Shown here: piece by piece, positions 3,385 to 42,784 of the stretch
Position numbering within the stretch: the first letter of the stretch is position 1
Layout: each line of letters starts with the position of its first letter
Source of the DNA: Cyanidioschyzon merolae
Taxonomy: Eukaryota
DNA length: 64,000 nt
Assembly (NCBI GenBank): GCA_000091205.1
Contig: AP006500.2
Direction: 5' to 3' (one strand)
The notes under the pieces: model-generated
The model's input: the letters and a program-made list of their open reading frames with translations, nothing else
Database searches by the model: none
What the model was told of the DNA's origin: nothing
Program-made: the position numbers and the translations under genes

Positions 3385-5229
3385 ATGCTCGTGTTGCTGC
3401 ACTTTGAAATTAGAGCCTGTTCATCAAAAGAAAAAGTTCGCAAGAAAACCGAAAAAAAGAGCCGCAGCGCCATCGGTAGCATATGCCTTTTCCCATCTGA
3501 CACTGGTGGCGTGTGCCGAGTAGTACTCGACTGCTCGCTTGCGCTCACACACTGGACACGTCGAGCTCTGGTTAGGCATATTCCGCGTCGAAGAATGACC
3601 TTTCTTCAAGCTCCAGTCACGTTTTCAAAGGCGCGTCCGCGACCTTGTCGGGGGTTTGTGTCACCACATCCTGAGTATACTCGGAACGCGAGTCGTTTCT
3701 CTCAACGAGTTCCGTTGGAACGTCGACGTTGCCGCGTGCATACCGTGCTTCGACTCGAGCTGTCGGGTGACGCTTTCGACAAATTTGGAGACAGCTGTAG
3801 AGAGACACCTGCTATAACTGCAACGCCGGGCGAGCAGCGTGAGTCGGGGAGTTTTCGCGAGCGCTACGCTTCGCGCCTGCCTGCGTGGCTCCTCACCCGC
3901 CTCGAGTCGGTCGGTTTTCACCGTTATACGCCTATCCAGAAAGCAGCATTGGACCATTTTCTGGGTACAGACGAGTCAGCACAAGGCGAAGAGCGCGCCA
4001 GGGACGCTGTCGTTTTCGGAGAAACCGGCTCCGGCAAGACTCTGGCATACCTCATTCCGCTGCTGGCCACCGTGAAGCCTACCCGTTCAGCAGTGCAAGG
4101 CCTCGTGATTGTCCCTACTCCGGAACTCGCTGTGCAGGTATATCGCGTTGCTCGCCGTCTTGCTGTGGGATACCTAGCCACGACAGCACCTGCATCGTCG
4201 TCAGTGCCACGGCGCGACCGTTTCCTTATAGGCATTGCACTCAACGAGGCTAGTGTCGATCGACAACGTCGCTTCTTTCGGAACGCACCGCCGAGAATCC
4301 TCATCGGCATCGCGGACCGCATTGAGGCTCTTGCGAGATCCAACAAGCTCCGTCTGCACTCCGTCCGCATGGCCGTTATAGACGAGGTTGATGTGAGCGT
4401 CGGGGAGCCCGCCTACCGGGCAAGCCTTCACGCGCTCCTGAACGTGTACTGCATGTCGAGGATCGAGGGACGGCGCACCACAGTGTTCGTTTCGGCAACG
4501 ATCCCCCAGTATCGACATTTCATGGACTATGCACGCCAGCAGGGATGGATGGATGGCGACATCAAAATCCTCGCAACAAAGTCGAGTCCCATGGACGCCG
4601 CACCGCAGGTGCAAGCCGTCCATGCCGCGACTCTCCGGGCCAACGCAGAGGAAACGCCCGCTTCACCGAACGGCCTGGAGTTGGCGTTGCAGCGCACGAA
4701 CGCTCCAGGCGTCGCACAACTACCCGAACGAATCGAACATTTTTATGTCATCTGCACCGAATCGCGAAAAAAGTTGAAAGCGCTTGCTTTCCTTCTCGAA
4801 AGGGAACGCCCTTCGCTTACCCAGGTCATCATTTTTTGCAGTGAATCACGAAATCTTGACCAGATTGCGAACTATATCCATGTACAGGGTCTTTTTACGG
4901 AATCCGAAGTTGCAGTGTTGTCGACAGCGCTTCCGCTGCGACGCCGACGACTCGCTCTGGAGCGCTTTCGCTGCGGCGAGGTCCGAGCGCTTTTCTCCAC
5001 CGATCTGGCGTCACGCGGTTTGGACATACCCGAAACGAGTCATGTGATCAACTTTGACTTACCCGAGACCGCAGAGCAGTATGCCCATCGAGTAGGACGC
5101 ACGGGAAGACTCGGTCGGCGGGGTCGCGCGATCTCGATAATCGTCCCTGGGGAACGATTCGTGCTTCAGCGCTATAGCAATCGCTTCCGCATCGATTTCA
5201 CGGATTGGACCCAAACTTCCCAGAGCTGA
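3385..5229 (+). CDS. DEAD-box-family RNA helicase with DEVD variant of motif II
   Basis: Q motif (GFHRYTPIQ), motif I (GETGSGKT), motif Ia (PTPELA), motif II as VIDEVD, motif III (SAT) and motif VI (HRVGRTGR). The ORF track starts at 3385, but the real start is more likely the Met near 3594 (MTFLQAP...), which is followed by an Arg-rich presequence-like stretch. Confidence 0.8.
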   Translation: MLVLLHFEIRACSSKEKVRKKTEKKSRSAIGSICLFPSDTGGVCRVVLDCSLALTHWTRRALVRHIPRRRMTFLQAPVTFSKARPRPCRGFVSPHPEYTRNASRFSQRVPLERRRCRVHTVLRLELSGDAFDKFGDSCRETPAITATPGEQRESGSFRERYASRLPAWLLTRLESVGFHRYTPIQKAALDHFLGTDESAQGEERARDAVVFGETGSGKTLAYLIPLLATVKPTRSAVQGLVIVPTPELAVQVYRVARRLAVGYLATTAPASSSVPRRDRFLIGIALNEASVDRQRRFFRNAPPRILIGIADRIEALARSNKLRLHSVRMAVIDEVDVSVGEPAYRASLHALLNVYCMSRIEGRRTTVFVSATIPQYRHFMDYARQQGWMDGDIKILATKSSPMDAAPQVQAVHAATLRANAEETPASPNGLELALQRTNAPGVAQLPERIEHFYVICTESRKKLKALAFLLERERPSLTQVIIFCSESRNLDQIANYIHVQGLFTESEVAVLSTALPLRRRRLALERFRCGEVRALFSTDLASRGLDIPETSHVINFDLPETAEQYAHRVGRTGRLGRRGRAISIIVPGERFVLQRYSNRFRIDFTDWTQTSQS

Positions 5230-5440: not shown

Positions 5441-8400
5441 TTACAGTGCATCTAGACGGAGCACCGTAACGGACACTTGCATGCCGTCCGTGGCGTCCTC
5501 CGAGGTGACTTGTGGACTCGTGCGCGCCGCCGTCTCTGGGACCTCGGCAGCTGCTTCCGTCAGCAGGCGCTCTATGGCCTCATCGGAGAACGTCTTGGAT
5601 GCGTTCTCGTCGTCAATGCTCAGTCGCACACCGTGGCGAACGAGTCCGCGCATGGTGGCCCGCGACAGCGTCTCACGATGGGTCGCGATCCACTGGAGAA
5701 TCCGCGGTAGCGGTGCCAGATGGAGCTGGATGAACTGACAGAGCTCACTTGCGTACGGGAGCGGATGGAAACCCAGCACTTCTTCCAGATTACCGATAAG
5801 GGTCTTGGCATCTACCAGCGCCTGGCTCACGCATTGAATGTCTACACTGGTGACGGGAATCTGTGCGATGCCGTCCTGAACGGCAACAAGTACGCCAAAA
5901 ACGCAGGCGCGCCACAATGGCTCCTCGGCATGCGCCGGTAGTCCTCGGGATTCGTGCAGCATGCGCAAACGAGCCGTTATCTGGGCTACATATGGACTAG
6001 CCCGCGAAACGGAGACCGCATCCTCATTCCCGCCTGCAGAGGCTTCTCCAAGCGTTTCATGCACAGCGCCTTCTGCCGACGGTGAGACCGGGCTCTGTCC
6101 CTGGGTAATAGACTGCCACCAGGGTGCCTTTTTCTGTTTCAACTGTTGAACGACGTTGCGCGTGATCTCTGCGGTATCCACGAGCGCCGGTGCCAGGGAA
6201 CGGTACAATGCCAGTTGCAGCGCATCGGCGAGGCCACGTAGCTGGTTCGCTCTACCAAGAGCCTCGGCGACAAACGCGTTTCGCCATCGGCTTTCCGGTC
6301 GGTATGCAACCTGTGTTTGTTCCTGAAAGGTGGCCGCTGTCTCCAGAGTCAGCGCAGCGACCTGTCCTATGGTCCAGGCCGACTCCACAGCGCAACAAAA
6401 CTTGCTCAAATTGAGTTCCGACCGCGGTCGTTGGAGCGCTGTTGACGACGCTGCACTGGATCCCGGTTCATGTAGAAAGTGTGCCAAAAGTGCTCGCTGG
6501 TACGCACTCAGTGCTGGCCGCAAGCTTTCATACTTTTCCAGTTGAACGAGACTACCGCCTAGAATACCCGTTGCCATGAAGCACGGCGCGTAGACGACAC
6601 CGAGCAGGTACATCGCAAAAAGTGCGATTTGCTGAATCGCTTCCGCAAATAGACCAGCTGGGGCAACATTTGCATATTCAGATGGTGCATACAGCATCGA
6701 TGCGAGCGTGCCAATGCATTCGATCCCAAATACCGATGCGCCCGTAAATGTATAGTCGTCGGGTATAGAATAACCCTCATCACGATGCAAGCGCTCCCAG
6801 ATAATAGACAGGAGATCTTCAACGCGCAAAGAGGCTAGCTCGTGGGTAAGCACCTTCACCACGAGGCACGAATCCGGATCCGCATCTGGTACTGCATACC
6901 AGGCGCGAATCGTCTCCCAGTAAGAACGCCAAGTCTCCGGTACAAAGCGATTCTGATCGAGCTGCATCTGGTTGCGCGTGTCAGTATTTCCCAGCGACTG
7001 AACGCTGATTGCTTGCCAGTCATTGGGAGTCGCAAATATCTCCATGAAGCGCGACTCAATATCACGTTTGAACAGATCAATATAACTCTTGAGGAGAGGC
7101 TTCACGATATTCTCGTGGATCGTAGCGAGCGGCAACGTGCGCTGCTTCCTCTGTCGAGTACCACGCAGGAGGCGTTCTGCATTCAGCTCCAAACTCGATG
7201 TGCGCACTACCGAGCCGTTCGGGCTTGCAGTAACCATTGAATGCTTCCTTGGTGCAGTCGCATCGAAGCTATAGATACCAGCGGCGCGTCCATCAGCGTC
7301 TTCCGGGAAGTGATCATCGGCTGCAATGGATATCCACTGTGTCTCCAGAGCGTGCAGCACCAGTTGGGAGCGCCAAAGCTCCGCCAGCGTCACTACAGGA
7401 TAGGTATCGTGTTCAGCGACAAGCTGATTCGCCATGAAATCGCAGTCCGCGTCGAGTCGAGCTTGCAGTGCCTCCCAAACGATGCTTCGAAATCGTTTGC
7501 TGATCCTGGGGTGTTCGAAAAGCTGTCGCACTGGGTAACAGATTGCTGAGAGAAATCCAGCCCAGCAGTCTAGAAACTCCCACGGATTCCGTGGTCTCGA
7601 GGCCAGTTCCCCACCAGATGGAGCGGTGTTGCTTGGCACATGTTGCGATTTTGGCGTCCGTGGTGCCAACGCGTTGGCATGGGCGCCTGCAGCCTGCCAT
7701 ACGTTCGTAAAGCTCGCAAGCAACGGCGACGCCACCGCAGCCTCTCTTTTGGATAACTCGTTTAAAGTCGCACCGGAGGCTTGCCTCCATTGTGCGCATT
7801 CGAGCGCCCTTGCACGAATCTCGGCAAGCACATGCTCCAAGGCATATGCGAAACGCTCGGCTAGGACCAACTCAGCGCCGAGATTCTCATAGGCGTTCCA
7901 GACGGCCTGGAATACTTCCGCATCGAACTTGCAACAGAGACCCTGCACCTGCTCGAACATGCACTGAAGCGATCGAGCGGCAAGGTCCATGAACACGTCT
8001 GAGAAATCTCTAAATATTCTTCCCTTTCGAACGACAGATCCAAGTTCTCTACGGAGAAGGCTCGAACGATACAGCAGATCGAATGACTTGCAAAGACGAT
8101 TCGCTTCATCATACTGATGCAGACGCAGCGCATCTCGCACTTCGTCTAAGAGCTGCTGCATCCGTCGAATAGTTTCAAGACTCTGTACAACCGAACGCAG
8201 AAATGAACGCTTGCTTACTTTGCGTTCGAATAGCTCTTCTGATACGTGCAGTTCTTTTCTTGAGCGACGAATAAGGTTCGAGTTTTCAGAAAGCGTCCCG
8301 AGTGCTTTCGACAAAGCGTCCGACACCAAATCCAGTGCGAGCGTTCGCTGCGCAACAGCTTCCGGGCCGGCCCGCAGTCGGACGTAGCGATTACTTCCCA

Positions 8401-9076
8401 AAGCCTGCGCTTGGTAGAGATGAGCCGTGTAACAGTCCAGCTGCTCGGTTGCTCGACCTAACTCATCAATGGCTTCGGTAAGGGCGCTCAAATTGATTAT
8501 CATTTTGCCATCAGCTCGTCGTCGAGATGCACGCATTAGAGCCTCCTGCAGCAAACTCGACGGTGTAACGCTTTCAATGACTTTGAGCTCGGACGCTTTT
8601 TCGTTGGACTCCTTGGCGCCGGCAGCGGCAACGGCACGTTCCACCGTGCTCAAGGAGACGTGCAACGACTTGAGCTGACGAAAAGACAGCTTTTTCGTGC
8701 CTCTCTCCGAACTTGCTGCTTGTCGGTTGCCGTCCTCGGTCGTGTCACTGTGGCGAGGCCGTTCGGGAACGACGGCAGCCGCTGTCGCTCGGGACTGGTT
8801 TTGCCGTGCATTGTAAGCGCGGCAAGTGCTCTCGTACTCAGAATTACAGTGCGAAAACGAGCCAGTGCCTACCGTGGAGCTGCCTGAACCGCCAACGGAT
8901 CCTAACAAACGTAACTCTTTCGCCAGAGGTTCGAACGGGCGTCCCGCAATGTGAAGCTGCTCTGCTGAGAACGAGCGACCGACCCGGAGCCCCCGGGAGT
9001 GGCGTGTTTTTTCGGAGTTCCACGAACCAACGTGCTCACCGGTTTCACGGGGCCGTTCGTGAAGAGATTCCATCAA
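5441..9076 (-). CDS. Large conserved hypothetical protein (1211 aa), function not assignable from sequence
   Basis: Long uninterrupted ORF with coding-like composition and helical, coiled-coil-like stretches. I recognise no catalytic motif. A vesicle-tethering-complex subunit is only a weak guess. Confidence 0.55.
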   Translation of the reverse strand: MMESLHERPRETGEHVGSWNSEKTRHSRGLRVGRSFSAEQLHIAGRPFEPLAKELRLLGSVGGSGSSTVGTGSFSHCNSEYESTCRAYNARQNQSRATAAAVVPERPRHSDTTEDGNRQAASSERGTKKLSFRQLKSLHVSLSTVERAVAAAGAKESNEKASELKVIESVTPSSLLQEALMRASRRRADGKMIINLSALTEAIDELGRATEQLDCYTAHLYQAQALGSNRYVRLRAGPEAVAQRTLALDLVSDALSKALGTLSENSNLIRRSRKELHVSEELFERKVSKRSFLRSVVQSLETIRRMQQLLDEVRDALRLHQYDEANRLCKSFDLLYRSSLLRRELGSVVRKGRIFRDFSDVFMDLAARSLQCMFEQVQGLCCKFDAEVFQAVWNAYENLGAELVLAERFAYALEHVLAEIRARALECAQWRQASGATLNELSKREAAVASPLLASFTNVWQAAGAHANALAPRTPKSQHVPSNTAPSGGELASRPRNPWEFLDCWAGFLSAICYPVRQLFEHPRISKRFRSIVWEALQARLDADCDFMANQLVAEHDTYPVVTLAELWRSQLVLHALETQWISIAADDHFPEDADGRAAGIYSFDATAPRKHSMVTASPNGSVVRTSSLELNAERLLRGTRQRKQRTLPLATIHENIVKPLLKSYIDLFKRDIESRFMEIFATPNDWQAISVQSLGNTDTRNQMQLDQNRFVPETWRSYWETIRAWYAVPDADPDSCLVVKVLTHELASLRVEDLLSIIWERLHRDEGYSIPDDYTFTGASVFGIECIGTLASMLYAPSEYANVAPAGLFAEAIQQIALFAMYLLGVVYAPCFMATGILGGSLVQLEKYESLRPALSAYQRALLAHFLHEPGSSAASSTALQRPRSELNLSKFCCAVESAWTIGQVAALTLETAATFQEQTQVAYRPESRWRNAFVAEALGRANQLRGLADALQLALYRSLAPALVDTAEITRNVVQQLKQKKAPWWQSITQGQSPVSPSAEGAVHETLGEASAGGNEDAVSVSRASPYVAQITARLRMLHESRGLPAHAEEPLWRACVFGVLVAVQDGIAQIPVTSVDIQCVSQALVDAKTLIGNLEEVLGFHPLPYASELCQFIQLHLAPLPRILQWIATHRETLSRATMRGLVRHGVRLSIDDENASKTFSDEAIERLLTEAAAEVPETAARTSPQVTSEDATDGMQVSVTVLRLDAL

Positions 9077-9333: not shown

Positions 9334-11419
9334 CTATTTCCTTACATTGATAGCGGCGTTAAAGTCTCGGTTCACGAATTCCATACGTTTCTTGCCATCA
9401 CTGGTTGTACTTATTAGTGCAAGTAGTCCACGAACTTTCGCTCTCATTTCCATTTGCTCTTCCGTCAGCGGTCCGTACCATTTCATATCCTCAGGGCTCC
9501 TCTGGCACTGTTCCATCTCGACCCCCTGAAGTGTGCATCCCGGTTCATGGTGTGGATAAGACGTTCGAAACTCATCAACAGGTATCGTGACAAAACGCCG
9601 TGCGCACTCCTAGTACGTTCTTGTCTTTGGAGCTGGAGTAGTCCCTTTTTGGATCTTCCAGCGCCCTGCTCTGTATGCTACTACGAGCCTCCGACTTTGA
9701 TCCTCTTTGAGGGCGCTCAGTTGATTGAAAAAGTTCGCGAACGCCCGCCGCTTACCGCAATATAAATTCATTCGCAAAAGAGCCCAACTGGGATTTGTAT
9801 ACTCCTCCCACAGTGCATCCCAATGAGGAACACGTACATTCATGAACTTCCGAAAAGCTTGTAAGCCCGCTCCTCGGCTCGTCACCTCGCTCAAAGCTTC
9901 CAGGTGATCCTTCATTCCTGAATTCCACGTAACAATTTTCTTCCTCACATTCATTATACCGGATTCTCGATAGTATCTCGCTCTCGAGAACCTCAATAGA
10001 CGCAAGTCTTTCTGACGTAAGTTGCCGTCAATGCCGTCTTCCCCACATTTGAGTGCGGCGATGGTAACGATATTCGTGTTCCCGGGGTCCGCGCCAACGA
10101 CCAAGTCGTTATCTTGCACTTTCTGTGTCGCAGGACCCGCCTGCTTCTCATCTTCATTCTTCGTCGCGGGCGGAGCTGGACGATCTGTCTTCAAGCGCCG
10201 ATTGTGCACACTCAAGGCTACTCCATCGGTTTCGATCATCCCAGCGAATACCTTTTGTTTGCTGACTTTGAGACGTTTGAAATCGAAGATATTCTTCCAG
10301 TACTTCTCCCGGTTTTCGCCGGAGAATCCCTCCTTGCTGACACCGAACTCGGGACTGATCTCGCTAATGATGCCGTAAAGGATTCTGGACTCGATAGTAA
10401 CAAAATGTGACTTGATGTTGCACATTGGAACCACGTTGAAGCGCTTCCCCATTAGGAACGCCTTCCGTCTCTCCCACTCTTCATTTTTTCCCTCAATCAG
10501 CTTCATCTCCGCCTTGCGCTCGAGTTCTCGACTCAGCGACACGAAATACCGCAGGATAAAGGGATGCCATCCTTTTCATAATTGATACCCTTTTTTGTGG
10601 ATGCATCAGCCCCAGAACCGCACGGTGCTCTTGAATAGCCGCACAGATCACAGAAGCTTTATTCTCTCCCTCGCATGATGTCTTCTTGTGGACGAATTCC
10701 ATTTCCTGTTCATTCTTACTATCGTTCGTGATGCTATCGATGATGGCCCATATCCTTTTGCGAGAGAGGCCCGGGTACAGCGCAAAGATGAAGCCTATCA
10801 TGAAGCGTTTGAGGTTCATAGTCATATGGTTCTTCCGGTACGTGAGGTACTTCGTCGCTCCGTAGGTGTAAATATCCCGGTTACCCATGTATCGAGTACC
10901 CTCGACGCGGAATTCCACGAAATTTTCGTAGAGGGCGTGCACTGGCTCATTATCCCTCCGCGCCTGCCGTGTACCAACCATCAGGTGGCGAACGAAGGTC
11001 TTGTTGAAAATTCCTCCGGAACCTCGACTGTTTTGATTTCCGTCGCGTTGCGATACATCTCCTTCACCAAATGCATTAGCCCTTACGAAGCGTGTATAAT
11101 ACTCATGGATTACGAATCGACACGGTTTCCGATGGCTTCTCGCATCTTCTCCTTATACGGATCTTTAATATGTCCAAGAAGACAGGCTTTCACGACCATC
11201 TCGTCGTACTGTCGTCTTTCTTGCAGTCTTCGACGTAAGGCCTCCCCCTTTTGCCTCTTTTCCGCTTCCTTTTCCTCTCGACTTGGCACTGTTTCTTGTT
11301 TTTTTTTTCTGGCAGCCGGCGACAATTGGTCCCCATGATCGTCGACTTGATTTTTCAATTCTTTCCTTTTTAATTTTTGAATATGAACGCTCTTTGAAAG
11401 CCTCTACTATAACCAGCAA
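9334..11419 (-). pseudogene. Fanzor / TnpB-like RuvC nuclease gene (eukaryotic OMEGA-type RNA-guided nuclease family), disrupted
   Basis: Minus-strand reading gives RuvC-I-like [18 protein letters not shown], then ...FVTIPVDEFRTSYPHHEPGC...C (the TSx-Cys/His zinc-finger segment), then RuvC-III ...GKKRMEFVNRDFNAAINVRK* ending at 9334. The frame is interrupted by an in-frame TAG at 9610-9612 and changes frame near 10493-10575. A Lys/Arg/Glu-rich N-terminal extension lies at 11110-11419. Combined length about 600-690 aa. Confidence 0.7.
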
Positions 11420-13902: not shown

Positions 13903-14916
13903 CTACCCCATCCGGATCGCCAAGAAAGCAACGAACCATAGCGCGATGGCAACCGCTACCAATAGCCACTGGGAGCAGATGGAGCGCACCCGTTCGTTCA
14001 CGTAGGTCTGCAGCCTTCCCTGCTGCGTTCGGACACTCTCCAGATTCCGCTCCAACTTGGGTTGCATCCGATCCAATATCTCATTGTCTCGCGTCACCGA
14101 TTCTTCAATCTGTTCTGCATGCTCACGTATGCGACCTACGGTATCCGATAAGACCTCAACGTACCTGTCCTGAAGCTGGAAATGCGCGAGAACCCCATCT
14201 GGTGCTTTGATGGCATATCGCGAGCTCGTCGATGAGACTTGTCCGGTGGGGTCCGCTGCGACCGATGGAAGCTCCAACCAGGTATGCTCCTTGCCAGGGT
14301 GGCTTCGTCGGCGTCGCAGTACAGGCTGTTTGATTTCCTGCCCTTCTTCTCGTTTCGTTTCCATAGGCTCAAACAACTTAAAAAAAGGAGCGTATTCCGC
14401 GAGCGTCTCAGCAACGACGGTCTCGGGGTCGGACTGCTCCCTCCGAGGCAACGCTTCGGCAGACGCCAGGCGCTCCACTCCAGGCGCTGCCTCGGTCACT
14501 TTGTCTAGTCGTCGCTCGACGAGCTTGTCTAGCTTATTGAACCATTGCAGAAAGGCGTCAAGTTGGCCCTCGATATCAACGCTTGGCAGTTCACCGTCCG
14601 GAGACTGTCGGCGCAAAGCCGTAACCACCTCTTTGAGAGCGACTAGGTACACCCTGAGATGCTCAGTACGCACGAGCAACTTGCCAAGCGTAGGTACGCT
14701 CACCGTTGTATCCGCGTTATTCGGGATGGAATGCAGTAGGTCTTCGAGTTCTCGCAAACGGTTCCCGATGGTTCCAGTGAGCTTCTTGGAGACGCGCCTC
14801 AGCTCTGCAGGCGAACCCGTGAGCAGGTCCCGAGCGATGCACGCTTTGGGTACTTGCACTCTTTCCAGAACCGGCTGGTGTCCGAGACTTGAGCCTTTTC
14901 GCAGCATCATTCTCAA
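13903..14916 (-). CDS. Tail-anchored membrane protein with SNARE-like C-terminal coiled coil
   Basis: 337-aa ORF with a single C-terminal transmembrane segment (WLLVAVAIALWFVAFLAI) directly after a heptad-like helical region (EQIEESVTRDNEILDRMQPKLERNLESVRTQQGRLQTYVNERV). This is t-SNARE-like (syntaxin-18/Use1/Sec20), but the family is uncertain. Confidence 0.45.
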   Translation of the reverse strand: MRMMLRKGSSLGHQPVLERVQVPKACIARDLLTGSPAELRRVSKKLTGTIGNRLRELEDLLHSIPNNADTTVSVPTLGKLLVRTEHLRVYLVALKEVVTALRRQSPDGELPSVDIEGQLDAFLQWFNKLDKLVERRLDKVTEAAPGVERLASAEALPRREQSDPETVVAETLAEYAPFFKLFEPMETKREEGQEIKQPVLRRRRSHPGKEHTWLELPSVAADPTGQVSSTSSRYAIKAPDGVLAHFQLQDRYVEVLSDTVGRIREHAEQIEESVTRDNEILDRMQPKLERNLESVRTQQGRLQTYVNERVRSICSQWLLVAVAIALWFVAFLAIRMG

Positions 14917-17899: not shown

Positions 17900-20800
17900 A
17901 TGACGGGAGAGAGTGTGAGTGTGCAATACCAGCCCGACGGAGTTGCCATCATCGTTTTTTCTGCTCCTCCAGTGAATGCGCTTTCGGTGAACCTACGGCG
18001 TTTGCTGGCTTTGAACGTCGCGAACGTTGTTGCTGATCGGCGGGCGAAGGCGATCGTGCTGTATGGTGGCGAGAGCACCTTCTCGGCCGGGGCTGACGTC
18101 GGCGAGTTCCCTGAAAAGCTTGGAAGTGCGGAGAATATTATCTCTTTGGATACGGAGCCGTTCAAGACGCTGCTAGAGACTAGTCCGAAGCCGACTGTGG
18201 CCTGTATCACAGGCACAGCGCTTGGCGGAGGCCTGGAGCTCGCCCTCGCGTGCCACTTTCGCGTTGCTCTATCGGATGCAAAGCTTGGACTTCCGGAGCT
18301 CAGACTGGGCCTTATCCCCGGTCTTGGTGGTACCCAGCGTCTTCCCAGACTGATCGGCGTTGAGCCAGCACTCGATATGATTATGCACTCGCGAATCATT
18401 GACGGCGAGGAAGCGCATCGCTGCGGGCTCGTCGACCGTCTCGTTCCAGCGAGTCGTCGAGAGACGTTACTGCGAGAGGCCTGTGCTGTAGCCCTGGAAG
18501 TCGCCTCAGATCCTCAAAAGATGCCGCCACCGCTATTAACCCGAACGGACAAGCTTGGGAATGCCGACGTTGAGAAAATTCGCAGCAAGTATCTGCCGAG
18601 AGCTGTAGAAATGCGGCAGAAAACTGGTCAGATCCAGTTTGAAAGCTGTGTCCGAGCTGTCCTCGAAGGCATTGAGCGTGGTGGTGGCGATGCTGGCTGG
18701 GCACTAGAAGCGGAGCTTTTTCGACAGTGCGCGGCGTCGGAGGCATCACGAGCTCTCATTCATGTCTTTCTTGCCTCGCGAAGAACAGTGACGAATTTTA
18801 AGGCAGAGCCGCACCTTCATGAGCCTCGGACAGTTGCGGTGATCGGCGGTGGCCTCATGGGAAGCGGGATTGCAGCATGTATCCTACAAAATGGTGGACG
18901 CGTCGTCTTGAAAGAAGTCAATGAAAATGCCCTTGCTGCAGCTATACAGCGTATTGAGGCTATCTTGAGCCGCGCCAAGGTCGACACCGCGGATGCCAGG
19001 CGGCGACTTCAAGGCACGATCGAATTCGACAAAAAGCTTTTCAGTGATGTAGACCTCGTCGTCGAGGCAGCCGTCGAAAATGTACAAGCGAAGCAAGGCA
19101 TCTTTCGATCGCTGGCGGAATGCACGGGACCACACTGCATTCTGGCGACCAACACCAGCACGATCAACTTGGACTTGATCGGTGAAGCGATTCCGCAAGT
19201 CCATAAGGAAGGGCGTCTGATTGGTGCACACTTCTTCAGTCCTGCACATGTTATGCCACTCCTGGAAATTGTACGTGCGAACCGCACCAGAAACCGCGCA
19301 GTGCAGATGGTGCTTGCGTTTGCGAAACATCTGCGGAAAACACCAATCATTGTGGGCAACTGCGCCGGTTTTGCCGTGAACCGAATGTACTTCCCCCAGA
19401 CCCAAATGGCGTTCTTTCTCACTGAGTACCTCGGTATTCATCCATACGACATCGATCGTGCATGTCAAGAGGTGCTTGGTCTGCCAATGGGACCCTTCGG
19501 CCTTGCGGATCTCGTCGGTCTCGACATCTGTGATTCTGTGAACCAGGTTTTTAGCATGTCGTATCCCGAGCGAGTTTGTAGCCTCAGCATCGCGGGCAAG
19601 TTGATTGAGATGGGCAGAAAAGGTCAGAAGAGCGGTGCTGGCTTTTACCGCTACGGTGCGGATCATCGCAAACCGATCGAAGATAGGGAGATGTTGGATC
19701 CGCTCCTTGCCTCTATGACGCCGCCACCGCTGCGCGAGCCATTAACGCCGTTAGACATCGTGCAGATGATTTTCTTCCCGGTCGTCAACGAGGCCATGCG
19801 GGTTCTCGAGGAGCGTATTGCCGACAAAGCAGCTGACCTCGACGTTGCATCGGTGCTTGGCTACGGTTTTCCGGCCTATCGAGGTGGCCTGCTCTACTGG
19901 GCTCAGCATCTTCCCGGCGGGCCGCGTCTCATCCTGGAGCGCCTGCGCGAATGGGATACACGATTCGGTACGCAGTGCCCGCTATTCGCTCCGTCGTTTG
20001 CCCTCGAATGTGCGCTAAGGTCAACTGAACCTGTGCTGGAGCGGCCTCCTCGTCCTCGTTTAGCGACAGGCTCGGACGACGATATCGTGTTCGTGGCCGC
20101 TGTTCGCACCGCGATCGGAAAAGCGGGGCGCGGCCTCCTGAAGGATACGCTCCCCGAAGACATGCTTGCGCCGCTCATCGGGGCGCTCTTGGATCGATCA
20201 GCTGTGAAACCCGCCGAGGTCGGAGACGTTATCGTCGGAACCGCCCTACCTCGTGGTGATGCGGCTGCTGTGAGTTTGCGCGTCGCTGCGCTGTGTGCTG
20301 GCCTTCCTGATACCGTTCCAGTGCGGCTGGTAAATAGGCTGTGTGCGTCGGGGTTGCAGGCTATCGCTGACGCTGCCGCTGCCATTCAGCGAGGCGATTA
20401 TGGTATCGCTATAGCCGGGGGTGTGGAATCCATGTCGATGAATGCTATCCAGTTAAGTCTGGAGCGCAGAAGTCACCGCCTAGCGAGTTGCGCAGCAGCA
20501 GAGGATGCCTATCTCAGTATGGGAGACACCTCGGAAAACGTTGCAGCGCGCTTTGCGATCAGTCGAGCAGCGCAGGATCGCTTCGCAGCTTCGAGTCATG
20601 CTCGAGCGTCACGTGCATCGCTTTCGGGACGCTTCGAGCGAGAAATCCTTCCCATTTCGACACAAGTGTATCCCACCAGGAAAGCGGCGAAGCAAGCAGA
20701 CGGGAACCTCTCCACGGCGGAACGCGCGCCCGCAGTCCCACAACCGGTTGTGGCGCAACGCGATGAGGGTATTCGCTTGGGCGTCACCACTGGAGCGTTG

Positions 20801-21337
20801 GCCAAGCTCCCGCCAGTCTTCCGAAAGCAGGGTACCACTACAGCTGGGAATAGCTCCCAAGTCAGCGATGGAGCGGCACTGGTACTCTTAATGAAGCGCA
20901 GCGAGGCACGGCGGCGGGGTCTCCGGCCGCTGGGAACGTTCCGGGCCTTTGCGGTTGCAGGCGTGCCGCCAGCAATCATGGGCATAGGACCCGCGGCCGC
21001 TATTCCGAAGCTACTTTCGCAGGCTGGAGTCGAAGCTAATTTGATTGATCTATACGAAATCAATGAAGCATTTGCCTCTCAGGCGGAATACTGTGTCCAG
21101 AAACTTGGACTCAACCGAGACGTTCTCAATGTGAATGGCGGTGCAATTGCACTCGGTCATCCGTTGGGCATGTCCGGCGCTCGTCTCTGTGTGACGCTCT
21201 TGCACGAGCTTGCTATCCGGGAGGGGCGCTATGGCGTGGTCAGTATGTGTGTTGGTACCGGGATGGGAGCCGCTGCTCTACTGGAACGATGTGAAGATGA
21301 CGGTTTTGATGAGCGACGGTTGCGAGCAGCACTTTAA
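17900..21337 (+). CDS. Single-polypeptide trifunctional fatty-acid beta-oxidation enzyme: enoyl-CoA hydratase + 3-hydroxyacyl-CoA dehydrogenase + 3-ketoacyl-CoA thiolase (FadB-FadA-like fusion)
   Basis: N-terminal crotonase fold (…ACITGTALGGGLELALACHFRVA…). Central NAD-binding 3-HAD domain (VIGGGLMGSGIA…; HFFSPAHVMPLLEIV). C-terminal thiolase with N-terminal thiolase signature (DDDIVFVAAVRTAIGKAGRG), active-site Cys region (NRLCASGLQAIADAA) and C-terminal signature (NVNGGAIALGHPLGMSGARL). All are in one continuous 1145-aa ORF. Confidence 0.85.
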   Translation: MTGESVSVQYQPDGVAIIVFSAPPVNALSVNLRRLLALNVANVVADRRAKAIVLYGGESTFSAGADVGEFPEKLGSAENIISLDTEPFKTLLETSPKPTVACITGTALGGGLELALACHFRVALSDAKLGLPELRLGLIPGLGGTQRLPRLIGVEPALDMIMHSRIIDGEEAHRCGLVDRLVPASRRETLLREACAVALEVASDPQKMPPPLLTRTDKLGNADVEKIRSKYLPRAVEMRQKTGQIQFESCVRAVLEGIERGGGDAGWALEAELFRQCAASEASRALIHVFLASRRTVTNFKAEPHLHEPRTVAVIGGGLMGSGIAACILQNGGRVVLKEVNENALAAAIQRIEAILSRAKVDTADARRRLQGTIEFDKKLFSDVDLVVEAAVENVQAKQGIFRSLAECTGPHCILATNTSTINLDLIGEAIPQVHKEGRLIGAHFFSPAHVMPLLEIVRANRTRNRAVQMVLAFAKHLRKTPIIVGNCAGFAVNRMYFPQTQMAFFLTEYLGIHPYDIDRACQEVLGLPMGPFGLADLVGLDICDSVNQVFSMSYPERVCSLSIAGKLIEMGRKGQKSGAGFYRYGADHRKPIEDREMLDPLLASMTPPPLREPLTPLDIVQMIFFPVVNEAMRVLEERIADKAADLDVASVLGYGFPAYRGGLLYWAQHLPGGPRLILERLREWDTRFGTQCPLFAPSFALECALRSTEPVLERPPRPRLATGSDDDIVFVAAVRTAIGKAGRGLLKDTLPEDMLAPLIGALLDRSAVKPAEVGDVIVGTALPRGDAAAVSLRVAALCAGLPDTVPVRLVNRLCASGLQAIADAAAAIQRGDYGIAIAGGVESMSMNAIQLSLERRSHRLASCAAAEDAYLSMGDTSENVAARFAISRAAQDRFAASSHARASRASLSGRFEREILPISTQVYPTRKAAKQADGNLSTAERAPAVPQPVVAQRDEGIRLGVTTGALAKLPPVFRKQGTTTAGNSSQVSDGAALVLLMKRSEARRRGLRPLGTFRAFAVAGVPPAIMGIGPAAAIPKLLSQAGVEANLIDLYEINEAFASQAEYCVQKLGLNRDVLNVNGGAIALGHPLGMSGARLCVTLLHELAIREGRYGVVSMCVGTGMGAAALLERCEDDGFDERRLRAAL

Positions 21338-26071: not shown

Positions 26072-27808
26072 CTAGAGTTCTCGTGCTCCGAGCAGTAACG
26101 CTCGATCGTCTATGGCAACCACTGCATCTTCTGTCTGTTGTTGTTGTTGGTGCATCCAGCGGGTCATAATCGGATTGGTCTCGGTGGTGGTCTCGTCCTC
26201 GGGACCCGTATCATGACCAGGTACCGTGTCGGGTGCATCCTCCGCACTTTTGATCAAACCGGACAGGTATGTTGCGCTATCCAACGTTGCAGCTAAAGGA
26301 AATTCGCTAAGATCGGCATTACACTGGGCTGATTGCGTTTCTGGCCGCGACAGCGAAGCCGTCTCTTGCGTCTCCTCGAGGGCACCGTACCCGTCGATGC
26401 TGCGCTCCCTATCGGAATCTGACGCTCCATAGGCGAATCGCAAAATCCGTCCAAAAAACAATCCCTGGACGAGAATCGACCAGACGACACCGATATAGGT
26501 CAGCATGAAGAGCAAATGATTGAAGCTCCTGGTCACCGCCTGTCCAGAAGCTTCCAACGCACCGGGAGCAGCGAGTGCCAGGGCGATAGATACTCCACCG
26601 CGCAAACCTGACCAAATGATTATCGCTACAGAATCGATTCTATATACCGCACGACGGTGCCGAGGTTCGTGAACAGCATCCCCGAACAACCGCCAACGGC
26701 GACCTCGTGACCAGTAGCGCCAGCAGCGGCTGCTCAACATCACCGCCGCCAGACTGAGCACCACCGAGGCCGCTCGAGCGATCATCGTGATAAGAATCGT
26801 GATGCAAGCTACAAGCAGCGTGCTTTTCCAGGATGAGGTCGGGCTCCAAACAACCGCCGAGAGACCTATGAGAAGAAAGAGCATTCCGTTAAGTGTTTCA
26901 TCGATGAATTTCCAGATGTGGAGCAATCGCTTCTCACCTCGTCGAGTAAAGGCTGTACCGCGTCCGCGGCTACTCATGACAATGCCAGCAAACACAGCTG
27001 CCAACGGTACGGATGCGTGTACATAGGAGCAAAAAACTTCCAAATTCAATACCAGCACAACTGAGGTCGTCACCTCCAGTAACGCATCCTCCACCATTCC
27101 GATAACATGACAGGCAAGCAGACCGAATGCGAAACCAATAGCGACACCGCCGAGGGCCTCTACTAGAAACACCCGCAGGACTCGAAAAACTGCACTGCAG
27201 TAAGTGCAGGGTTCTGTTGATTTCCCCGACCGAATTAGAACGACGTAGAGAATGACGCTCACAGCGTCGTTGAAGAGCGACTCGCCCAGGATGGCAAAGC
27301 GGGTAGCATCTGGAACTTGGCGGCGATACTTTTTCAGGATACTCATTACCGCAACTGGATCCGTGGGCGAAATAATCGCCCCAAACAGCAGTGCCTCACG
27401 GAAACTGAGCGCATAGAGGCTGGCCAGCCCACCGTAGGTCAGGACGCCTACCAAGAGCGCAGACAGGAGCGTCGAGAGTACCGAGAGCGCGAACACCGTT
27501 ACCCGAATGCGCCGGAACTCTCGCACATCAACGTGCAGTGCAGTCGCAAACAACAGAAATCCCAGGAAATAATCCAGTAAAAGTTCTGGGAATTCGTAGA
27601 TCACTTCAGTAAAACGATCCACTTCCTGCTGCAGGGGCGGCACCACCAGCGCCAGCTGCTTCAACACAAACGAGAGCACAAGTGCAACCAGCGAATTCAG
27701 CACTACCTGCGGTATTTGGAAGACTCGCTCGTTGACCAGTCGAAGGATCCACGTTGTGGTGAGTAGAAGATCCAGAATGACGACCGCTGTAGCGATCATC
27801 AGGAACAA
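26072..27808 (-). CDS. Na+/H+ exchanger, CPA1 (NHE/NhaP) family
   Basis: Polytopic membrane protein, 578 aa, with the NHE signature FGESLFNDAVSVILY and multiple TM helices. The C-terminal hydrophilic tail is acidic. Confidence 0.8.
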   Translation of the reverse strand: MFLMIATAVVILDLLLTTTWILRLVNERVFQIPQVVLNSLVALVLSFVLKQLALVVPPLQQEVDRFTEVIYEFPELLLDYFLGFLLFATALHVDVREFRRIRVTVFALSVLSTLLSALLVGVLTYGGLASLYALSFREALLFGAIISPTDPVAVMSILKKYRRQVPDATRFAILGESLFNDAVSVILYVVLIRSGKSTEPCTYCSAVFRVLRVFLVEALGGVAIGFAFGLLACHVIGMVEDALLEVTTSVVLVLNLEVFCSYVHASVPLAAVFAGIVMSSRGRGTAFTRRGEKRLLHIWKFIDETLNGMLFLLIGLSAVVWSPTSSWKSTLLVACITILITMIARAASVVLSLAAVMLSSRCWRYWSRGRRWRLFGDAVHEPRHRRAVYRIDSVAIIIWSGLRGGVSIALALAAPGALEASGQAVTRSFNHLLFMLTYIGVVWSILVQGLFFGRILRFAYGASDSDRERSIDGYGALEETQETASLSRPETQSAQCNADLSEFPLAATLDSATYLSGLIKSAEDAPDTVPGHDTGPEDETTTETNPIMTRWMHQQQQQTEDAVVAIDDRALLLGAREL

Positions 27809-28286: not shown

Positions 28287-29168
28287 TTGCCGTTTGGAGC
28301 ACTTTCTGTGGAAACGCACGCCATGGGTGCCGAAGACTCTTCACTTTGCGCGGAGCTCTATCGATTTCTGAGGCTGCTGGTTCACAATCTACTCTACGCT
28401 GCGAAGGTGTACCCCGAGCAGTACTTTACTCAGCAAATAGCGTTCAACTTGACGACTCGAGTCGCCACCGTGGACTGCCTCGAGCGCTACATCACTGAGC
28501 ACATCGCGTTGCTCCACCGCGGCCAACGCCCTATAGGTACTGTCCATGAGATGATTGTTTCCATTCAAGAGCTTCCAGAACAACAGGATATGAACCCGAC
28601 GGTCGAATCTGTGGCGAAGCAGACCTCTCAGAATGGAGCAGAGGCGCAGCTGGCATCAAATACGGATCCCTGTCATTCGATGCTCGAGCTTGTTCGTCTT
28701 CGAGTGCTTCTCCCAGATCTTGAGGCACTCGAGGCCCTTGAAGCAACACCAGATAAGTGGAAGCTTCTCGAAGCCTATCGGTCCCGTTTTCGCCTCGTGC
28801 TCTGTCGAGTATTGACGTATCCGTGGCCACCACTCGCGGCACCAGTTTCGCTTGAAACATGGCGTCGAACATTCCGCCTCTATTTTCGTCTTAGTATGCC
28901 AGAGAAACAAGACGATACTGGTCTGATTCTAGAGACGCTTCGAGAACCTATCATATCAGAACGGGAGAGCGCACCGTCCACCAGCGAGAAAGAGCCCGCG
29001 AATGACGCTCGCGCTCTTCTTTATGCCAGTCAGAGGTTTGGCTTTCCGAGGGGCGTTTCCGTCCCTTTATGTGATGACGCAATAACAACACTCGACGGTG
29101 CTTCGAGCTTTCCTCCGAAACTGTCGCTTTTTGTTTTCATTGAAGAGCCACCCTTGGTGCCGATCTGA
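28287..29168 (+). CDS. HORMA-domain-like protein (Mad2/Rev7/p31comet-like fold)
   Basis: N-terminal segment LCAELYRFLRLLVHNLLYAAKVYPEQYFTQQIAFNLTTRVATVDCLERYITEHIALL matches the HORMA N-terminal consensus (…ILYxRxVYPxxxF…vxxxPxLxxYI…). The rest is not diagnostic. Confidence 0.4.
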   Translation: MPFGALSVETHAMGAEDSSLCAELYRFLRLLVHNLLYAAKVYPEQYFTQQIAFNLTTRVATVDCLERYITEHIALLHRGQRPIGTVHEMIVSIQELPEQQDMNPTVESVAKQTSQNGAEAQLASNTDPCHSMLELVRLRVLLPDLEALEALEATPDKWKLLEAYRSRFRLVLCRVLTYPWPPLAAPVSLETWRRTFRLYFRLSMPEKQDDTGLILETLREPIISERESAPSTSEKEPANDARALLYASQRFGFPRGVSVPLCDDAITTLDGASSFPPKLSLFVFIEEPPLVPI

Positions 29169-31554: not shown

Positions 31555-34500
31555 TTAAGCAATCTTCAAAGGCTTGTCGTTCAGGTATCTCAGTCGCGAT
31601 GTCGCTCTCCGCTTGGTAGCGTTCGAATCATGATGCTCTAGACCAATAAAATTGTGGACATAAGTATCATCGTTCTCGACAATGCAATCCTGCAGGTTGA
31701 TGAGCCCCCGACGCAGCAGTTTCTCTTCCGCCGAAAGCATGGTAGCAGTGTCAACCGCGGCTCCCGTGACGCCCTCTGCAACGCTCGGCTGGCGACCGTT
31801 CGACACAGCCAACTCGGATATCTTTTCAGTGCTTGGTCGCCCTGACTTGGTGGTCTCCGAATGATTCACAGGTTGTTCACCGTGGTGAGCTTTTTCGGTG
31901 TTTTCTGGAGAGCCCAGCGCAGCGGATCGCTCGCTCTCTTCGTGCCCATTGGGTTGCAGGTAGATCACGGGATGCCGCTCCGCTGGACGTACATACAGCA
32001 GGCGCCATTGTCGGAACTCGTTTTCAGGTAGCTGGAGACGTTCTTGAATAAGCGTTTGGAGCTGTTGAACAGGCAAAGTGCCATGGATCTCAGGCGACGG
32101 CACCCGCAGCAAAAACGGCAATCCGAAACTGTTCACCGTCGCAAGACCGCCAGCGGCGTAGTTCTCATCTTGCTGGATCCCGTACAACGGTGGTGACGCA
32201 CTCTTCGATATGTGCGCAACTCGAATGAGCACACAGCCTTGGCGGGAGAGCTCTTCAGGGGTCTCATGAGGCGGAACCGGTTCCGCCAGAATCTCAAAGT
32301 TTTCGCGGTTGCTATCCGGACCCAGAACCGTAACAGTGCGGTCCAAGGGTACGATACCAGCAATTATTTTCTTCTGCCACAGTTCGTGCACTCGTATGCC
32401 TGCGTATTGCGACTGCAACGCCGTACGCTCCGTGACGGACAATTTCGACTCCAGTTCCCGAATCAGGTCCCCGTAGGTAGCGTTCAGCGGCAAGGCGAGC
32501 AGAATTTTTCGTCCAATCATATCGATCGGCGTTGGTCGCCAAGTTATCGTCACTTCCTGCTTGCCCTCGAAGGCTTCCGCATCGGTATCGATGAACTCAT
32601 AGAACAATTTCACAATTCGTTGTTTGGATACGATGCATTCGAGTATTTTCCGCGTTCGAGCACCGCTCATAGGGATCGGATCGGAATCTCTCGGATAGAG
32701 AAAGTCATCTAGCGATGAAAAGCCTCTTCGATGAAAGCGAACTCGGCTAGGTCGCAGATCCTCGGCAGTGACTCCGCAAGTCTGCATCAAATCTAGACCC
32801 TGCTGCTGCTGATGCAGATTGCGCAGTTTCGCGACCAGCAGAGTTCCTAACCCATACTGCGTCAACTGCGTGGATACGTTTCGTAATAGGATCTCTGATG
32901 CATTCTGCTGATCTGAGCCGGGTCCCGATGCGACGGATCCCCCGCGAGAAGGTTCCTCGGTGAGAGGCTCGTCTCCTGCAGCACCGCTCATTCTCTGAAG
33001 AGTAAGCGGAACCAGTCGAACATCGCAACGGTGCCGGAGAAAGTCCCGCGCATCCCAAAACATATGCCGGTAGAGCGCGTTTGCTTGTTCCTCAACTGAG
33101 AGATCCGGATCCTGCAAGATACTTGCGAGCAGCGCAGCACTGGATACCGGTGCTTCGGAATTGTTGCCCGACTCGTTCACGTTCAGTGCCCGAGCCGTCT
33201 GATCAGTTTGCTGCCGAATAGGTGATCGTCTTCCGAATATGATAATATCTCCGCTTTGCAACTGATTACGGGCGGTCGAGAGCGCCACGTCAGAGACGAT
33301 CTCCTTGGCATCCTGACTTGTGACTTCCTCATACCAATAGAGTTCCGACAGCGGTACGCGGGGCAACACATTGCGCTCTCTGAGTAAAGCTACTAGATTC
33401 TGCATCGTGAGATGCATCGGCACAACATCCCAGCCGAGGACGCGAAGCTCGGGAGATTCCCGAGCCGGTGGATCTGCCGATTCATACCATTTGAAGAGCA
33501 TGAGACACTCTCGTTTGTCAAACAGGGCCGCCAAGCGGACCGGTTCCTGGCGGACGTCGATGAACAAGTTCACCGCATGGATCGAGCTACCCATGCTACC
33601 GGGACTTGCCCCAGCTTGATTGTTGCGGGCGATTGCTCGATCATTCCATGCCCTCTCGAGTGGCTCCTCATGGTTTCCATCGTTGAGAAGGCGACTTGGC
33701 CGAATGGTCTGATTGATGCGCGCCACAAACGTCCAAACGAGCATTCTCTGGCAAGCGTCCCCGTCGAAGTTCTCGTTCGACAGCGCACTGCTCGCATCGA
33801 TGCCTTCAGGACTGAGTACCTCTTTCAAGAGCATTTGCTTGAATTCACCCAAAAGCATACTACGTCGAACCCGTAGAATGAGGCCCTGATTCAGATCCGT
33901 CCAGTCCAGTCCGTGATAGCCCTTCTGCATTGCCGGCGTAATCAGGCGGATGTTCATCATCTGGCGCAGCTCCTCTCGTTCGCGAATCTTTTTCTCTTCC
34001 AGCTCCTTTTCCAAAGCGATTCGCTGCCGCAACGCCTCCGGGACATCAGCCTCTGTGGACGCACCCAAGTAAATGTGCGCATCCTTCTTGCGAACGTACT
34101 GGAGCATGTAAGCATTGGTAAAGCGACGTTGTGGCGGAAAGGGTACACCGTTCGCCGCGAGTGGTGCCCCAAAGTTGTCTTCAACGGCTTCAGACTCCGT
34201 AACGCGCAGGACTCGTTCGTCATCGAATTTGAACCAAATCTTAGAGCCCTCCTCCGTTCCAGGGTCCGGCCTGATATAGGCGTGGTAGTGACCTCCATGT
34301 ACGTCGCCCATATGAACTAGAACCGCATGCAACACATAAATGTATTCTTCATCGTCGGCTCCAGTGGAGCCATCTACAAACTCACCCAGTTTGATTTCCG
34401 GGTAGAATTCATAGCGATCGTTGATTTTCACCATCATATCACGATTGAAGTCGTACTCAAATCTTTTCAAGTGAAGCTGGAGAACCGGTGGTAACTTGAT

Positions 34501-36405: not shown

Positions 36406-37519
36406 AAAGCCGTATTATCTGGGCCAGGCACCCCTACTGTGCAGCTCTCAAGAAGCACCGCAGAATGACAGGCACCAACGACAGCAGCACTGATTCTGAT
36501 CAATCAGAGCGTGCTGCTGCGCTCCGGACGGGTGCTGTGCGCTGAGCGCAGTACACCTGCCTTTCTAGAGGCGTATCGGGATATCGCTTTCTTTATCGTG
36601 AGGTATCCCAGATCCCTGGTTATCAGAGTGTATCCGGGTTGGATCAGCACCTTCAGTGACACTCGTTGGCTTCCATGGTAACTGAGCGGGCTGGGGCGTA
36701 CTGGAGCTGTTCTTCGTAAAGGCGCTAGCAGCGATCGGCTCTCTCGCCGTTTGAAAGGTGCGGTCTGGCGGGTTTCTTTCGCTTCAAGTCTGCTTTGTTT
36801 GGAGCGTTTCTGAGAACGAGAGCCTAAAACCAGGTCATTGTGGCACATGGGGACGGAAACGTTGAAACTGACCAAGGGCTGCAAAAGTGCGGGGCGATAA
36901 ACTTGGGGAAACACCGCTTCTGGAATCGACACATGTTCCAGCGGACGCTGTGCGCTTTGGGCTATCTCTGTTGAACGATACTTCGGTAAATTTGGCAGGT
37001 TGATAAAGCTCGAAAGAATTTTCCCAAATAGGTTTTTCGGAAAAGAACAGGTATCTTTTTGGGCATTTGCATGAAATGTCGATGCACAAGTCCTGGGGAA
37101 CCCAGCGCTGCTGGCTCACGCCGTGTGAAAGATAAAAACGTTGTTGGTTATTGTAGTAAATCTGGGGTTCGAGAGCACTGCGGCTTGTCGGCATTGTCTT
37201 CAAGGGGGCATGGGATTACGCTTGCGTCCGCATTCCGTTGAACTTTCGCCGGTGAAGACGAACTCGCAGCTTTTACAGTTTCATCCATGAGTGCATTTGG
37301 CTTGCGAAATTTATCATCTCTGCTCAGATCTTCTCAGTGTCTCCATATGCTTGAAAGTTCTATTTGTGTAAAACTCTAGAAAACCGTCTATGCAGTTACC
37401 ACTGCAGGTTTGAACAGGTCTACGGAACATGCGACATATGAACGAGCGGCAGCGTATTGACGTGCCCGCTTCCATTTGCTCTGAACAACTGTTGCATCGA
37501 ACCAGTCGTCTTTTTCCTG

Positions 37520-38800: not shown

Positions 38801-39045
38801 ATGAGCTAGTCGGAGTTGCACCATTTCGTTCTGAAAAGTGTGGATAATTTGCACGCAGTTTGTTCCGTTGTCAACAGTGATGCCTCGCCAGATTTCTGAG
38901 CATCTCGACGATGCATGACAGCACAAGGAAGTTTCGGTGTTGCTATTCAGACTCTAATTATAAATATGACCAAGAGCACCACCGATCAAACAGCTATGCT
39001 GGCCGAGGCCGCGGAGTCCACGAATGCGGCTGACGGTGCGCTAAA

Positions 39046-42000: not shown

Positions 42001-42468
42001 GCTGAAACTGCCGGTGAAGACGATTTGGAAACGGAGCCAGACGTATGAGATGACGTACGCTGAGTTCATTGAGCTCCAGGTGGCAATGCACTCACAGTTG
42101 AGACGCTTGCTGTGGAGTGTCTCCATCACGAACGGGAAACGCGTCCAGTTTCTGAACCGAGATTTGAGCGCCCATATCAGCATCTGGAACTGCATCGTTC
42201 TTCAGGAGCGTCCATCGGCTTTACTTCAGGCGAGGCTTCGATTCGATTGTCTAGTATGCAGTGTGGGTATTGTGCTGGAATGCTGCGGACTCTCGATGAA
42301 AAACATCATGTATCATCAGAGCGGCGATTAAGTCCCCGCTTGGAGCAAGCCACTTGTATGGTACGGTCTGCACTGTATCAAGGCCGGACTGCCATATACC
42401 TTCGCCACGAACAATGTTCGTGGGTAATTGTGGAACACTCATCGTATTCCTTACTTGGGTATTACGGA
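39046..42468. repeat. 3.4-kb dispersed repeat R, copy 2
   Basis: Full-length direct copy of 21761-25185 with about 98-99% identity, inferred from duplicated ORF translations that differ only by point substitutions. Flanks are unrelated. Confidence 0.9.
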
Positions 42469-42784
42469 GTATAGCGCTGTAGCAAACGAGGCTGGCGCTG
42501 CAGTGCGTGGCATTCAAACATGACTCTGCGCTGGCCTTGAATTTCGTCCGGGCGGCATTCCGGTACAGTCTCGAAAACTTTCTCTGTGCAGCAGCGTGCA
42601 GCTGTCTGCAACTTTAGTTTGAGTTACCGCGCTATTACGTTCATATTCTGTACAGCACTCTTTTGCAGCGGTAGAGCTAGTTCTCTGTACAGCTGCGTAC
42701 TTTTATATATATATGAATACGCTCTGCGGGGCGAAAATGTTTCGCGAACATGAGGTAAACTCATGTCCAGTCACCGACGCCTTC

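Follow-up and report, generated by a model that had tools for sequence, protein, structure and literature searches.

The hydratase, dehydrogenase and thiolase reactions of beta-oxidation are housed in differently assembled proteins. In the bacterial FadB/FadA (FadJ/FadI) and the mitochondrial HADHA/HADHB systems, the three consecutive reactions take place in one assembly, where the alpha subunit carries enoyl-CoA hydratase (ECH) followed by 3-hydroxyacyl-CoA dehydrogenase (HAD or HACDH) and the thiolase supplies the dimer. Arabidopsis uses two genes, with a peroxisomal targeting signal type 1 (PTS1) on the multifunctional protein (MFP) MFP2 and a cleavable type 2 signal (PTS2) on the 3-ketoacyl-CoA thiolase (KAT) KAT2. 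A third arrangement was described in red algae by Mori et al. 2016 (Front Plant Sci 7:958, PMC4928187): the Cyanidioschyzon merolae MFP CMR380C comprises ECH, HACDH and KAT in one chain, likewise in Porphyridium, and its location was called unclear. Here we analyse a stretch of 64,000 nucleotides of the C. merolae genome (assembly GCA_000091205.1, contig AP006500.2), hereafter the window, in which the gene of this protein lies at 17900..21337 on the plus strand. The original prediction, made from the letters of the window, had treated the fusion as possibly new. It has in fact been public since the annotation of the C. merolae genome, being already called a fusion protein in GenBank, and since the work of Mori et al. 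2016.

Results

Gene and domain architecture

The region 17900..21337 (+) is a single open reading frame (ORF) that starts with ATG and contains 1145 codons plus the stop, with no internal stop, while both other frames across the junction between MFP and thiolase are interrupted by stops. Direct comparison showed its translation to be the same, residue for residue (100% identity), as BAM82571.1/XP_005538607.1 of C. merolae 10D, which is encoded on a 1,253,087-bp record. The gene, CMR380C, is complete in the window. The frame is closed by a stop 17 codons before the ATG, too near for a hidden N-terminal presequence; this candidate was rejected, and the original prediction had likewise seen no obvious one. 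From the ORF, its domains and catalytic residues, the conservation of the architecture and the identity to the published protein, all of which were observed directly, we consider it highly probable that CMR380C is a genuine and functional single-chain trifunctional beta-oxidation enzyme, composed of a peroxisomal-type MFP, a connector of about 20 residues and a peroxisomal-type KAT. The fusion is thus a real gene, intact and conserved; having been annotated and published before, it is no new entity.

All Pfam matches were far above the gathering scores and follow one another as ECH_1 (residues 13-206), 3HCDH_N (311-487), 3HCDH (490-585), Thiolase_N (729-1001) and Thiolase_C (1009-1130). The enoyl-CoA hydratase/isomerase (crotonase) domain, encoded at 17936..18517 (+), matches ECH_1 with an E-value of 3.2e-39 and has the catalytic residues Glu113 and Glu133, whose surroundings (GGGLE113LA and LPE133L) are kept in all fused homologues. 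The 3-hydroxyacyl-CoA dehydrogenase part at 18830..19654 (+; 3HCDH_N 1.5e-46, 3HCDH 1.2e-25) has the motif G316-G-G-L-M-G321 together with Ser420, His444, Glu456 and Asn494. It is followed at 19655..20020 (+) by the C-terminal helical domain of the MFP part, residues 586-707, which was delimited by alignment to Arabidopsis MFP2 (AtMFP2, 2wtb; up to residue 691) and to rat MFE1 (up to residue 707). The 3-ketoacyl-CoA thiolase at 20084..21289 (+; Thiolase_N 1.9e-65, Thiolase_C 5.8e-45) has Cys815, Asn1055, His1087 and Cys1117, and reaches 418 bits with TIGR01930, a general acetyl-CoA C-acyltransferase model, against a cut-off of 240.55. With PROSITE-type patterns, three thiolase signatures were matched at 811-829, 1077-1093 and 1112-1125, and the crotonase signature at 100-120. 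Thus, the crotonase, the dehydrogenase and the complete thiolase that had been predicted in one 1145-residue ORF are all there with intact catalytic motifs, including the N-terminal signature, the active-site Cys region and the C-terminal signature of the thiolase.

In an alignment of 69 fused sequences, Glu113, Glu133, the GxGxxG motif (G316-x-G-x-x-G321), Ser420, His444, Glu456 and Asn494 are invariant or at least 90% conserved, and the same is true of Cys815, Asn1055, His1087 and Cys1117.

In the alignment with the Amborella and Musa MFPs, the MFP part reaches as far as the plant proteins but lacks their PTS1. Its end lies at about residue 707 according to the alignment with rat MFE1 and AtMFP2 and to a helix at 700-707 of the AlphaFold2 model. 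The thiolase part begins with DDDIVFV (726-732). In the alignment to KAT2 this stretch falls at residue 29, the start of the matched region and among the first residues of the solved Arabidopsis chain, so no PTS2 presequence is present on the thiolase part. Between both parts there is a connector of about 20 residues (708-728, ...STEPVLERPPRPRLATGSDDD; 20021..20083, +), defined by alignment and by the consensus of the fused homologues. Its position is identical in all fused lineages, and an R-P pair is conserved in red algae (consensus RPxLxxGxxDDIVIV). The linker sequence quoted in the original prediction is present, although shorter than the roughly 30 residues proposed.

Both halves were compared with known enzymes. 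The N-terminal 717 residues scored 505 bits with AtMFP2 (2wtb) among solved structures, against 322 for Pseudomonas FadB, 315 for rat MFE-1 and 265 for human HADHA. For the C-terminal 428 residues the best match was Arabidopsis KAT2 (AtKAT2, 2wu9; 411 bits), then the sunflower glyoxysomal thiolase and human ACAA1 (359), with FadA at 238. The NCBIfam equivalog models fell short of their cut-offs for FadB (428 of 870 bits), fa_ox_alpha_mit (330 of 965) and FadA (303 of 519), and also for FadJ. An origin from the FadBA or mitochondrial trifunctional enzyme type was rejected on these cut-offs and because peroxisomal enzymes are the better Protein Data Bank (PDB) matches for both halves. As the halves are closest to AtMFP2 and AtKAT2 and the cut-offs of the FadBA type are missed, what was fused is a peroxisomal-type MFP and a peroxisomal-type KAT rather than the alpha and beta subunits of bacteria or mitochondria. 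The covalent three-activity fusion of the original prediction stands, but not its descent from an alpha-beta pair such as FadB+FadA or HADHA+HADHB.

Like peroxisomal MFE-1 and plant MFPs, CMR380C has two crotonase glutamates and a dehydrogenase with GxGxxG and a His-Glu dyad, followed by helical C-terminal domains. It lacks the C-terminal PTS1 right after the MFP part, where the chain continues into the connector and the thiolase. Similarly, Thiolase_N and Thiolase_C with the Cys-Asn-His-Cys set are those of a degradative peroxisomal KAT, while the cleavable N-terminal PTS2 presequence R-[LIVQ]-x5-[HQ]-[LA] is absent and the first 70 residues of the protein contain no PTS2 pattern. Thiolases of this kind act as homodimers on medium- and long-chain 3-ketoacyl-CoA.

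Fused homologues

Among 5.8 billion proteins searched, about 70 homologues share the six Pfam families with CMR380C in a full-length fused chain. The red-algal ones come from Galdieria, Cyanidium, Cyanidiococcus, Porphyridium, Chondrus, Pyropia, Hildenbrandia, Agarophyton and Gracilaria; that of Cyanidium caldarium is 64% identical. The gene organisation of related taxa, which the original prediction had proposed to compare, is hence the same, and the junction occupies the homologous alignment position in all fused lineages. Several of the homologues are RNA-derived contigs (MMETSP, Trinity, TSA), which shows, for those species at least, a single mRNA running across the junction; such an mRNA has been seen so far only in species other than C. 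merolae. Moreover, about 10 independently assembled environmental variants have the same 1145-residue ORF with 1-4 substitutions each.

The first assembly of Cyanidiococcus yangmingshanensis (P0004/P0138) gives the orthologue as two genes, of 752 and 300 residues, and the later assembly (P0139) as one protein of 1144 residues. The split is a frameshift: identity ends at residue 681, after which the sequence is out of frame, and the thiolase model begins at the internal Met845. Sequencing errors split the fused gene, they do not create it.

Full-length fused proteins also exist beyond red algae, in Cyanophora paradoxa, Andalucia godoyi, Heterolobosea sp. BB2 and Balamuthia mandrillaris. When 1.84 billion representatives clustered at 50% identity were searched, the best 150 included only about 7 clusters that run across the junction and no bacterial protein of the order ECH-HAD-thiolase. 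The fusion is rare, as had been predicted, and not confined to red algae.

A neighbour-joining tree was built from the MFP half only, there being too few named stand-alone thiolase outgroups. In this tree, 99 of 100 bootstraps unite the fused sequences of red algae. A clade of all fused sequences was obtained in 0 of 100, with unfused eukaryotic MFPs interspersed, so this tree does not decide between a single fusion, multiple fusions and later fission.

Structure model

An AlphaFold2 model of the CMR380C monomer was built on the alignment of the 69 fused proteins. Its mean predicted local distance difference test score (pLDDT) is 90.4 and its predicted template modelling score (pTM) 0.90. The connector is modelled as coil with a block pLDDT of 88-95, values that fit a defined arrangement of both halves rather than a floppy tether. 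In a Foldseek search of the PDB, the N half gave a template modelling (TM) score of 0.92 to AtMFP2 (2wtb), and no solved chain covered both halves (highest query-normalised TM, 0.56).

Targeting signals

The C-terminal tail of CMR380C (residues 1131-1145; 21290..21334, +) ends in R-L-R-A-A-L, a PTS1-like but non-canonical end, as the original prediction had noted. Among 74 C-termini of fused homologues, 51 fit [SAC][KRH][LMI] and 7 more end in GKL, giving 58 of 74 of PTS1 type; those with species names are mostly red algae, including Galdieria (SRL). Since most red-algal orthologues bear a C-terminal PTS1, the ancestral location was peroxisomal. The terminus R-x-R-A-[A/M]-L is common to Cyanidioschyzon, its 79% relative, Cyanidiococcus and Cyanidium, and the ten residues before it vary freely, which suggests that selection acts on this end.

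The non-red fused proteins have no PTS1. Five of them (P0075, P0076, P0071, P0141 and P0077) have, before the hydratase domain, a nonapeptide like the PTS2 of thiolases (RREVLLSHL, RREVLLGHL, RRELVLSHL, RQTVLLGHV and RAQIVLRHL); none of the five fits the strict PTS2 consensus, from which either position 2 or position 9 deviates. In P0065, P0066, P0068 and P0074/P0140, the last being Cyanophora, both the PTS1 and any PTS2-like motif are missing. Either the gene models of these proteins have wrong ends or their targeting is different.

Neighbouring genes and repeats

The nearby genes are ordinary and unrelated to beta-oxidation. They encode a short-chain dehydrogenase/reductase (973-1746, -), a DEAD-box helicase (3385-5229, +), a Use1-like protein with a weak match below the Pfam cut-off (13903-14916, -), a Na+/H+ exchanger (26072-27808, -), a USP7-type ubiquitin hydrolase with a MATH domain (31555-36405, -), an ABC ATPase (45904-47283, +) and a protein with an RNA recognition motif (RRM; 62090-63085, -). 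The long ORFs at 5441-9076, 9610-10542, 28287-29168, 53010-54881 and 59522-60943 gave no Pfam match.

A perfect inverted repeat of 1,423 nt (100% complementary) occupies 48336-49758 and 51333-52755, with a spacer of 1,574 nt. The spacer contains an ORF of 226 residues (49990-50670, +; Pfam TsaE, 1e-27), and neither arm contains a long ORF. A palindrome of this size without a single error, enclosing one gene, is unusual. In each arm, a unit of 13 bp is repeated in tandem 7.2 times (AGCGCATGAACCG), at 49256-49348 and 51743-51835. A perfect (TGCG)x18 microsatellite is located at 1988-2059. Between 36400 and 44700, about 8 kb are devoid of ORFs of at least 200 residues on either strand, in an otherwise compact and intron-poor genome, and a GC-rich stretch (GC 0.594) lies at 40-42 kb inside this region. 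No tRNA or Rfam match was found anywhere in the window, the 36400-44700 region included.

Discussion

The sequence of CMR380C suggests three activities. After acyl-CoA oxidase (CMK115C in the literature) has made 2-enoyl-CoA, CMR380C would hydrate it through Glu113 and Glu133, would oxidise the hydrated product through His444 and Glu456 with NAD+, and finally would carry out thiolytic cleavage with Cys815 as the acyl-enzyme residue, assisted by His1087 and Cys1117. One chain would thus run steps 2-4 of beta-oxidation. Since thiolases are obligate dimers, the working form of CMR380C is most likely a homodimer whose two chains are kept together by the thiolase domains. Such a homodimer would be the two-chain equivalent of the alpha2beta2 complex, and its fixed domain geometry could favour the hand-over of intermediates. 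Hard-wired substrate channelling is what we infer from this arrangement.

A different fate of the chain would be that of a polyprotein-like precursor, in which a protease cuts the connector to release MFP and thiolase, the fusion possibly serving to carry the thiolase into an organelle without PTS2/PEX7. Peroxisomal proteases such as Tysnd1/DEG15 do process other beta-oxidation precursors, for instance SCPx. Furthermore, the connector sits exactly in the place of the PTS1 of the MFP and the PTS2 presequence of the thiolase, and its R-P pair is conserved in red algae. PEX7 and PTS2 cargo are absent in C. merolae (Gonzalez et al. 2011; Kechasov et al. 2020). However, the fusion is also found in lineages with an N-terminal PTS2-like signal (Andalucia, Balamuthia and Heterolobosea), so it is no mere remedy for the loss of PTS2. 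Besides, the connector is short and modelled as ordered, and its alignment displays no conserved processing site of the Cys type known from PTS2 proteins. We regard processing of this kind as improbable. Still less credible is that one module is a catalytically dead scaffold, leaving a bifunctional or monofunctional protein. Inactive crotonase or thiolase-like domains occur in other proteins, and nothing specific to CMR380C points that way; dead domains were rejected because every catalytic residue is present and conserved across the 69 fused sequences. The weakest alternative, to which we give practically no credence, is an assembly or annotation artefact, by which adjacent MFP and thiolase genes were merged through a stop or frameshift lost near 19950-20050: it was raised as a general possibility in the original prediction and recalls the two-gene annotation in one Cyanidiococcus assembly, but that annotation is itself a frameshift, the thiolase part has no start region or presequence of its own, the junction falls at one alignment position everywhere, and the continuous ORF recurs in the environmental assemblies, in Cyanidium, Cyanidiococcus, Galdieria and dozens more red algae, and in RNA-derived contigs of other species.

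Several points weigh against a functional single-chain enzyme of peroxisomal type. In the work of Mori et al. 2016 (PMC4928187), green fluorescent protein (GFP) carrying the N-terminal peptide of CMR380C went to vesicles and GFP carrying the C-terminal peptide stayed in the cytosol, neither of them reaching the peroxisome; no PTS was detected in CMR380C and the protein was missing from the proteome of isolated peroxisomes. On these grounds the authors suggested a possibly cytosolic pathway. In addition, our structure model is a monomer and has no inter-domain error map, so the dimer and the channelling stay at the level of what we infer; the activities and the C. merolae transcript are read from the sequence and the oligomeric state from what is established for thiolases; and the chain may be cut at the connector after translation. 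As for the localisation, the same GFP assay failed for the oxidase, the sole beta-oxidation enzyme with a detected targeting signal (PMC4928187; PTS1 in the table of Gonzalez et al., PMC3178647), and the assay may therefore lack sensitivity. In the table of Gonzalez et al. 2011 (PMC3178647), the thiolase of C. merolae appears with a "possible unknown derivative AAL" of PTS1; the same authors reported Pex7 as absent. The compartment had been called unclear in the original prediction, and the non-canonical PTS1 and the GFP constructs that missed the peroxisome agree with that caution.

It is tempting to join these observations, although we do so tentatively and with more doubt than confidence. 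Instead of being peculiar to red algae, as the literature has it, the MFP-KAT fusion could be an old eukaryotic architecture, given its glaucophyte, jakobid, heterolobosean and amoebozoan carriers. Targeting would then have passed in red algae from a PTS2-like N-terminal end to a C-terminal PTS1, alongside the loss of PEX7, and R-x-R-A-[A/M]-L would be a functional non-canonical PTS1. If this is true, beta-oxidation in C. merolae is peroxisomal after all, in contrast to the cytosolic proposal of Mori et al. Our literature search, which covered few subscription journals, looked for accounts of the fusion beyond red algae and of its biochemistry; it yielded Mori et al. 2016 alone, and no paper was found on the wider distribution of the fusion, on targeting signals sorted by lineage or on the conserved R-x-R-A-[A/M]-L end. 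The residual value of the locus concerns the extent of the fusion beyond red algae and the role of the conserved RAAL/RAML end.

With hydratase, dehydrogenase and thiolase covalently joined, such a chain offers a natural experiment in substrate channelling. Pathway engineering could also profit from so compact a three-step module, for instance for reverse beta-oxidation in a thermo-acidophile background. The lack of a canonical targeting signal bears on the site of fatty acid breakdown in a cell without PTS2 import. The two stand-alone C. merolae thiolases, CMA042C and CME087C, are listed as acetoacetyl-CoA thiolase homologues in a 2025 survey (PMC12649381); if this listing is right, the cell has no KAT-type thiolase other than that of the CMR380C fusion.

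In comparison with other known systems, a covalent fusion of thiolase and 3-hydroxyacyl-CoA dehydrogenase is also found in MBI2064984.1 (P0169), a protein of 827 residues from a metagenome-assembled genome of Candidatus Yanofskybacteria. That bacterial protein differs in its reverse order, with the thiolase at residues 2-423 and the dehydrogenase at 438-712, in having no hydratase domain, and in a thiolase part that is 36% identical. FadBA and HADHA/HADHB consist of separate, non-covalent subunits, whereas CMR380C is a single ORF. Arabidopsis MFP2 (2wtb) and KAT2 (2wu9) are the closest solved relatives of the two halves, with the same catalytic residues and folds; in contrast to these two proteins, CMR380C is one chain in which both internal signals are gone. 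Finally, the locus is the three-domain MFP that Mori et al. 2016 described in red algae. A single ORF encodes ECH, then HACDH with two domains and then thiolase with two domains; the sequence is identical to CMR380C, the ECH-HACDH-KAT chain and the question of its compartment are the same, and there is no difference between them.

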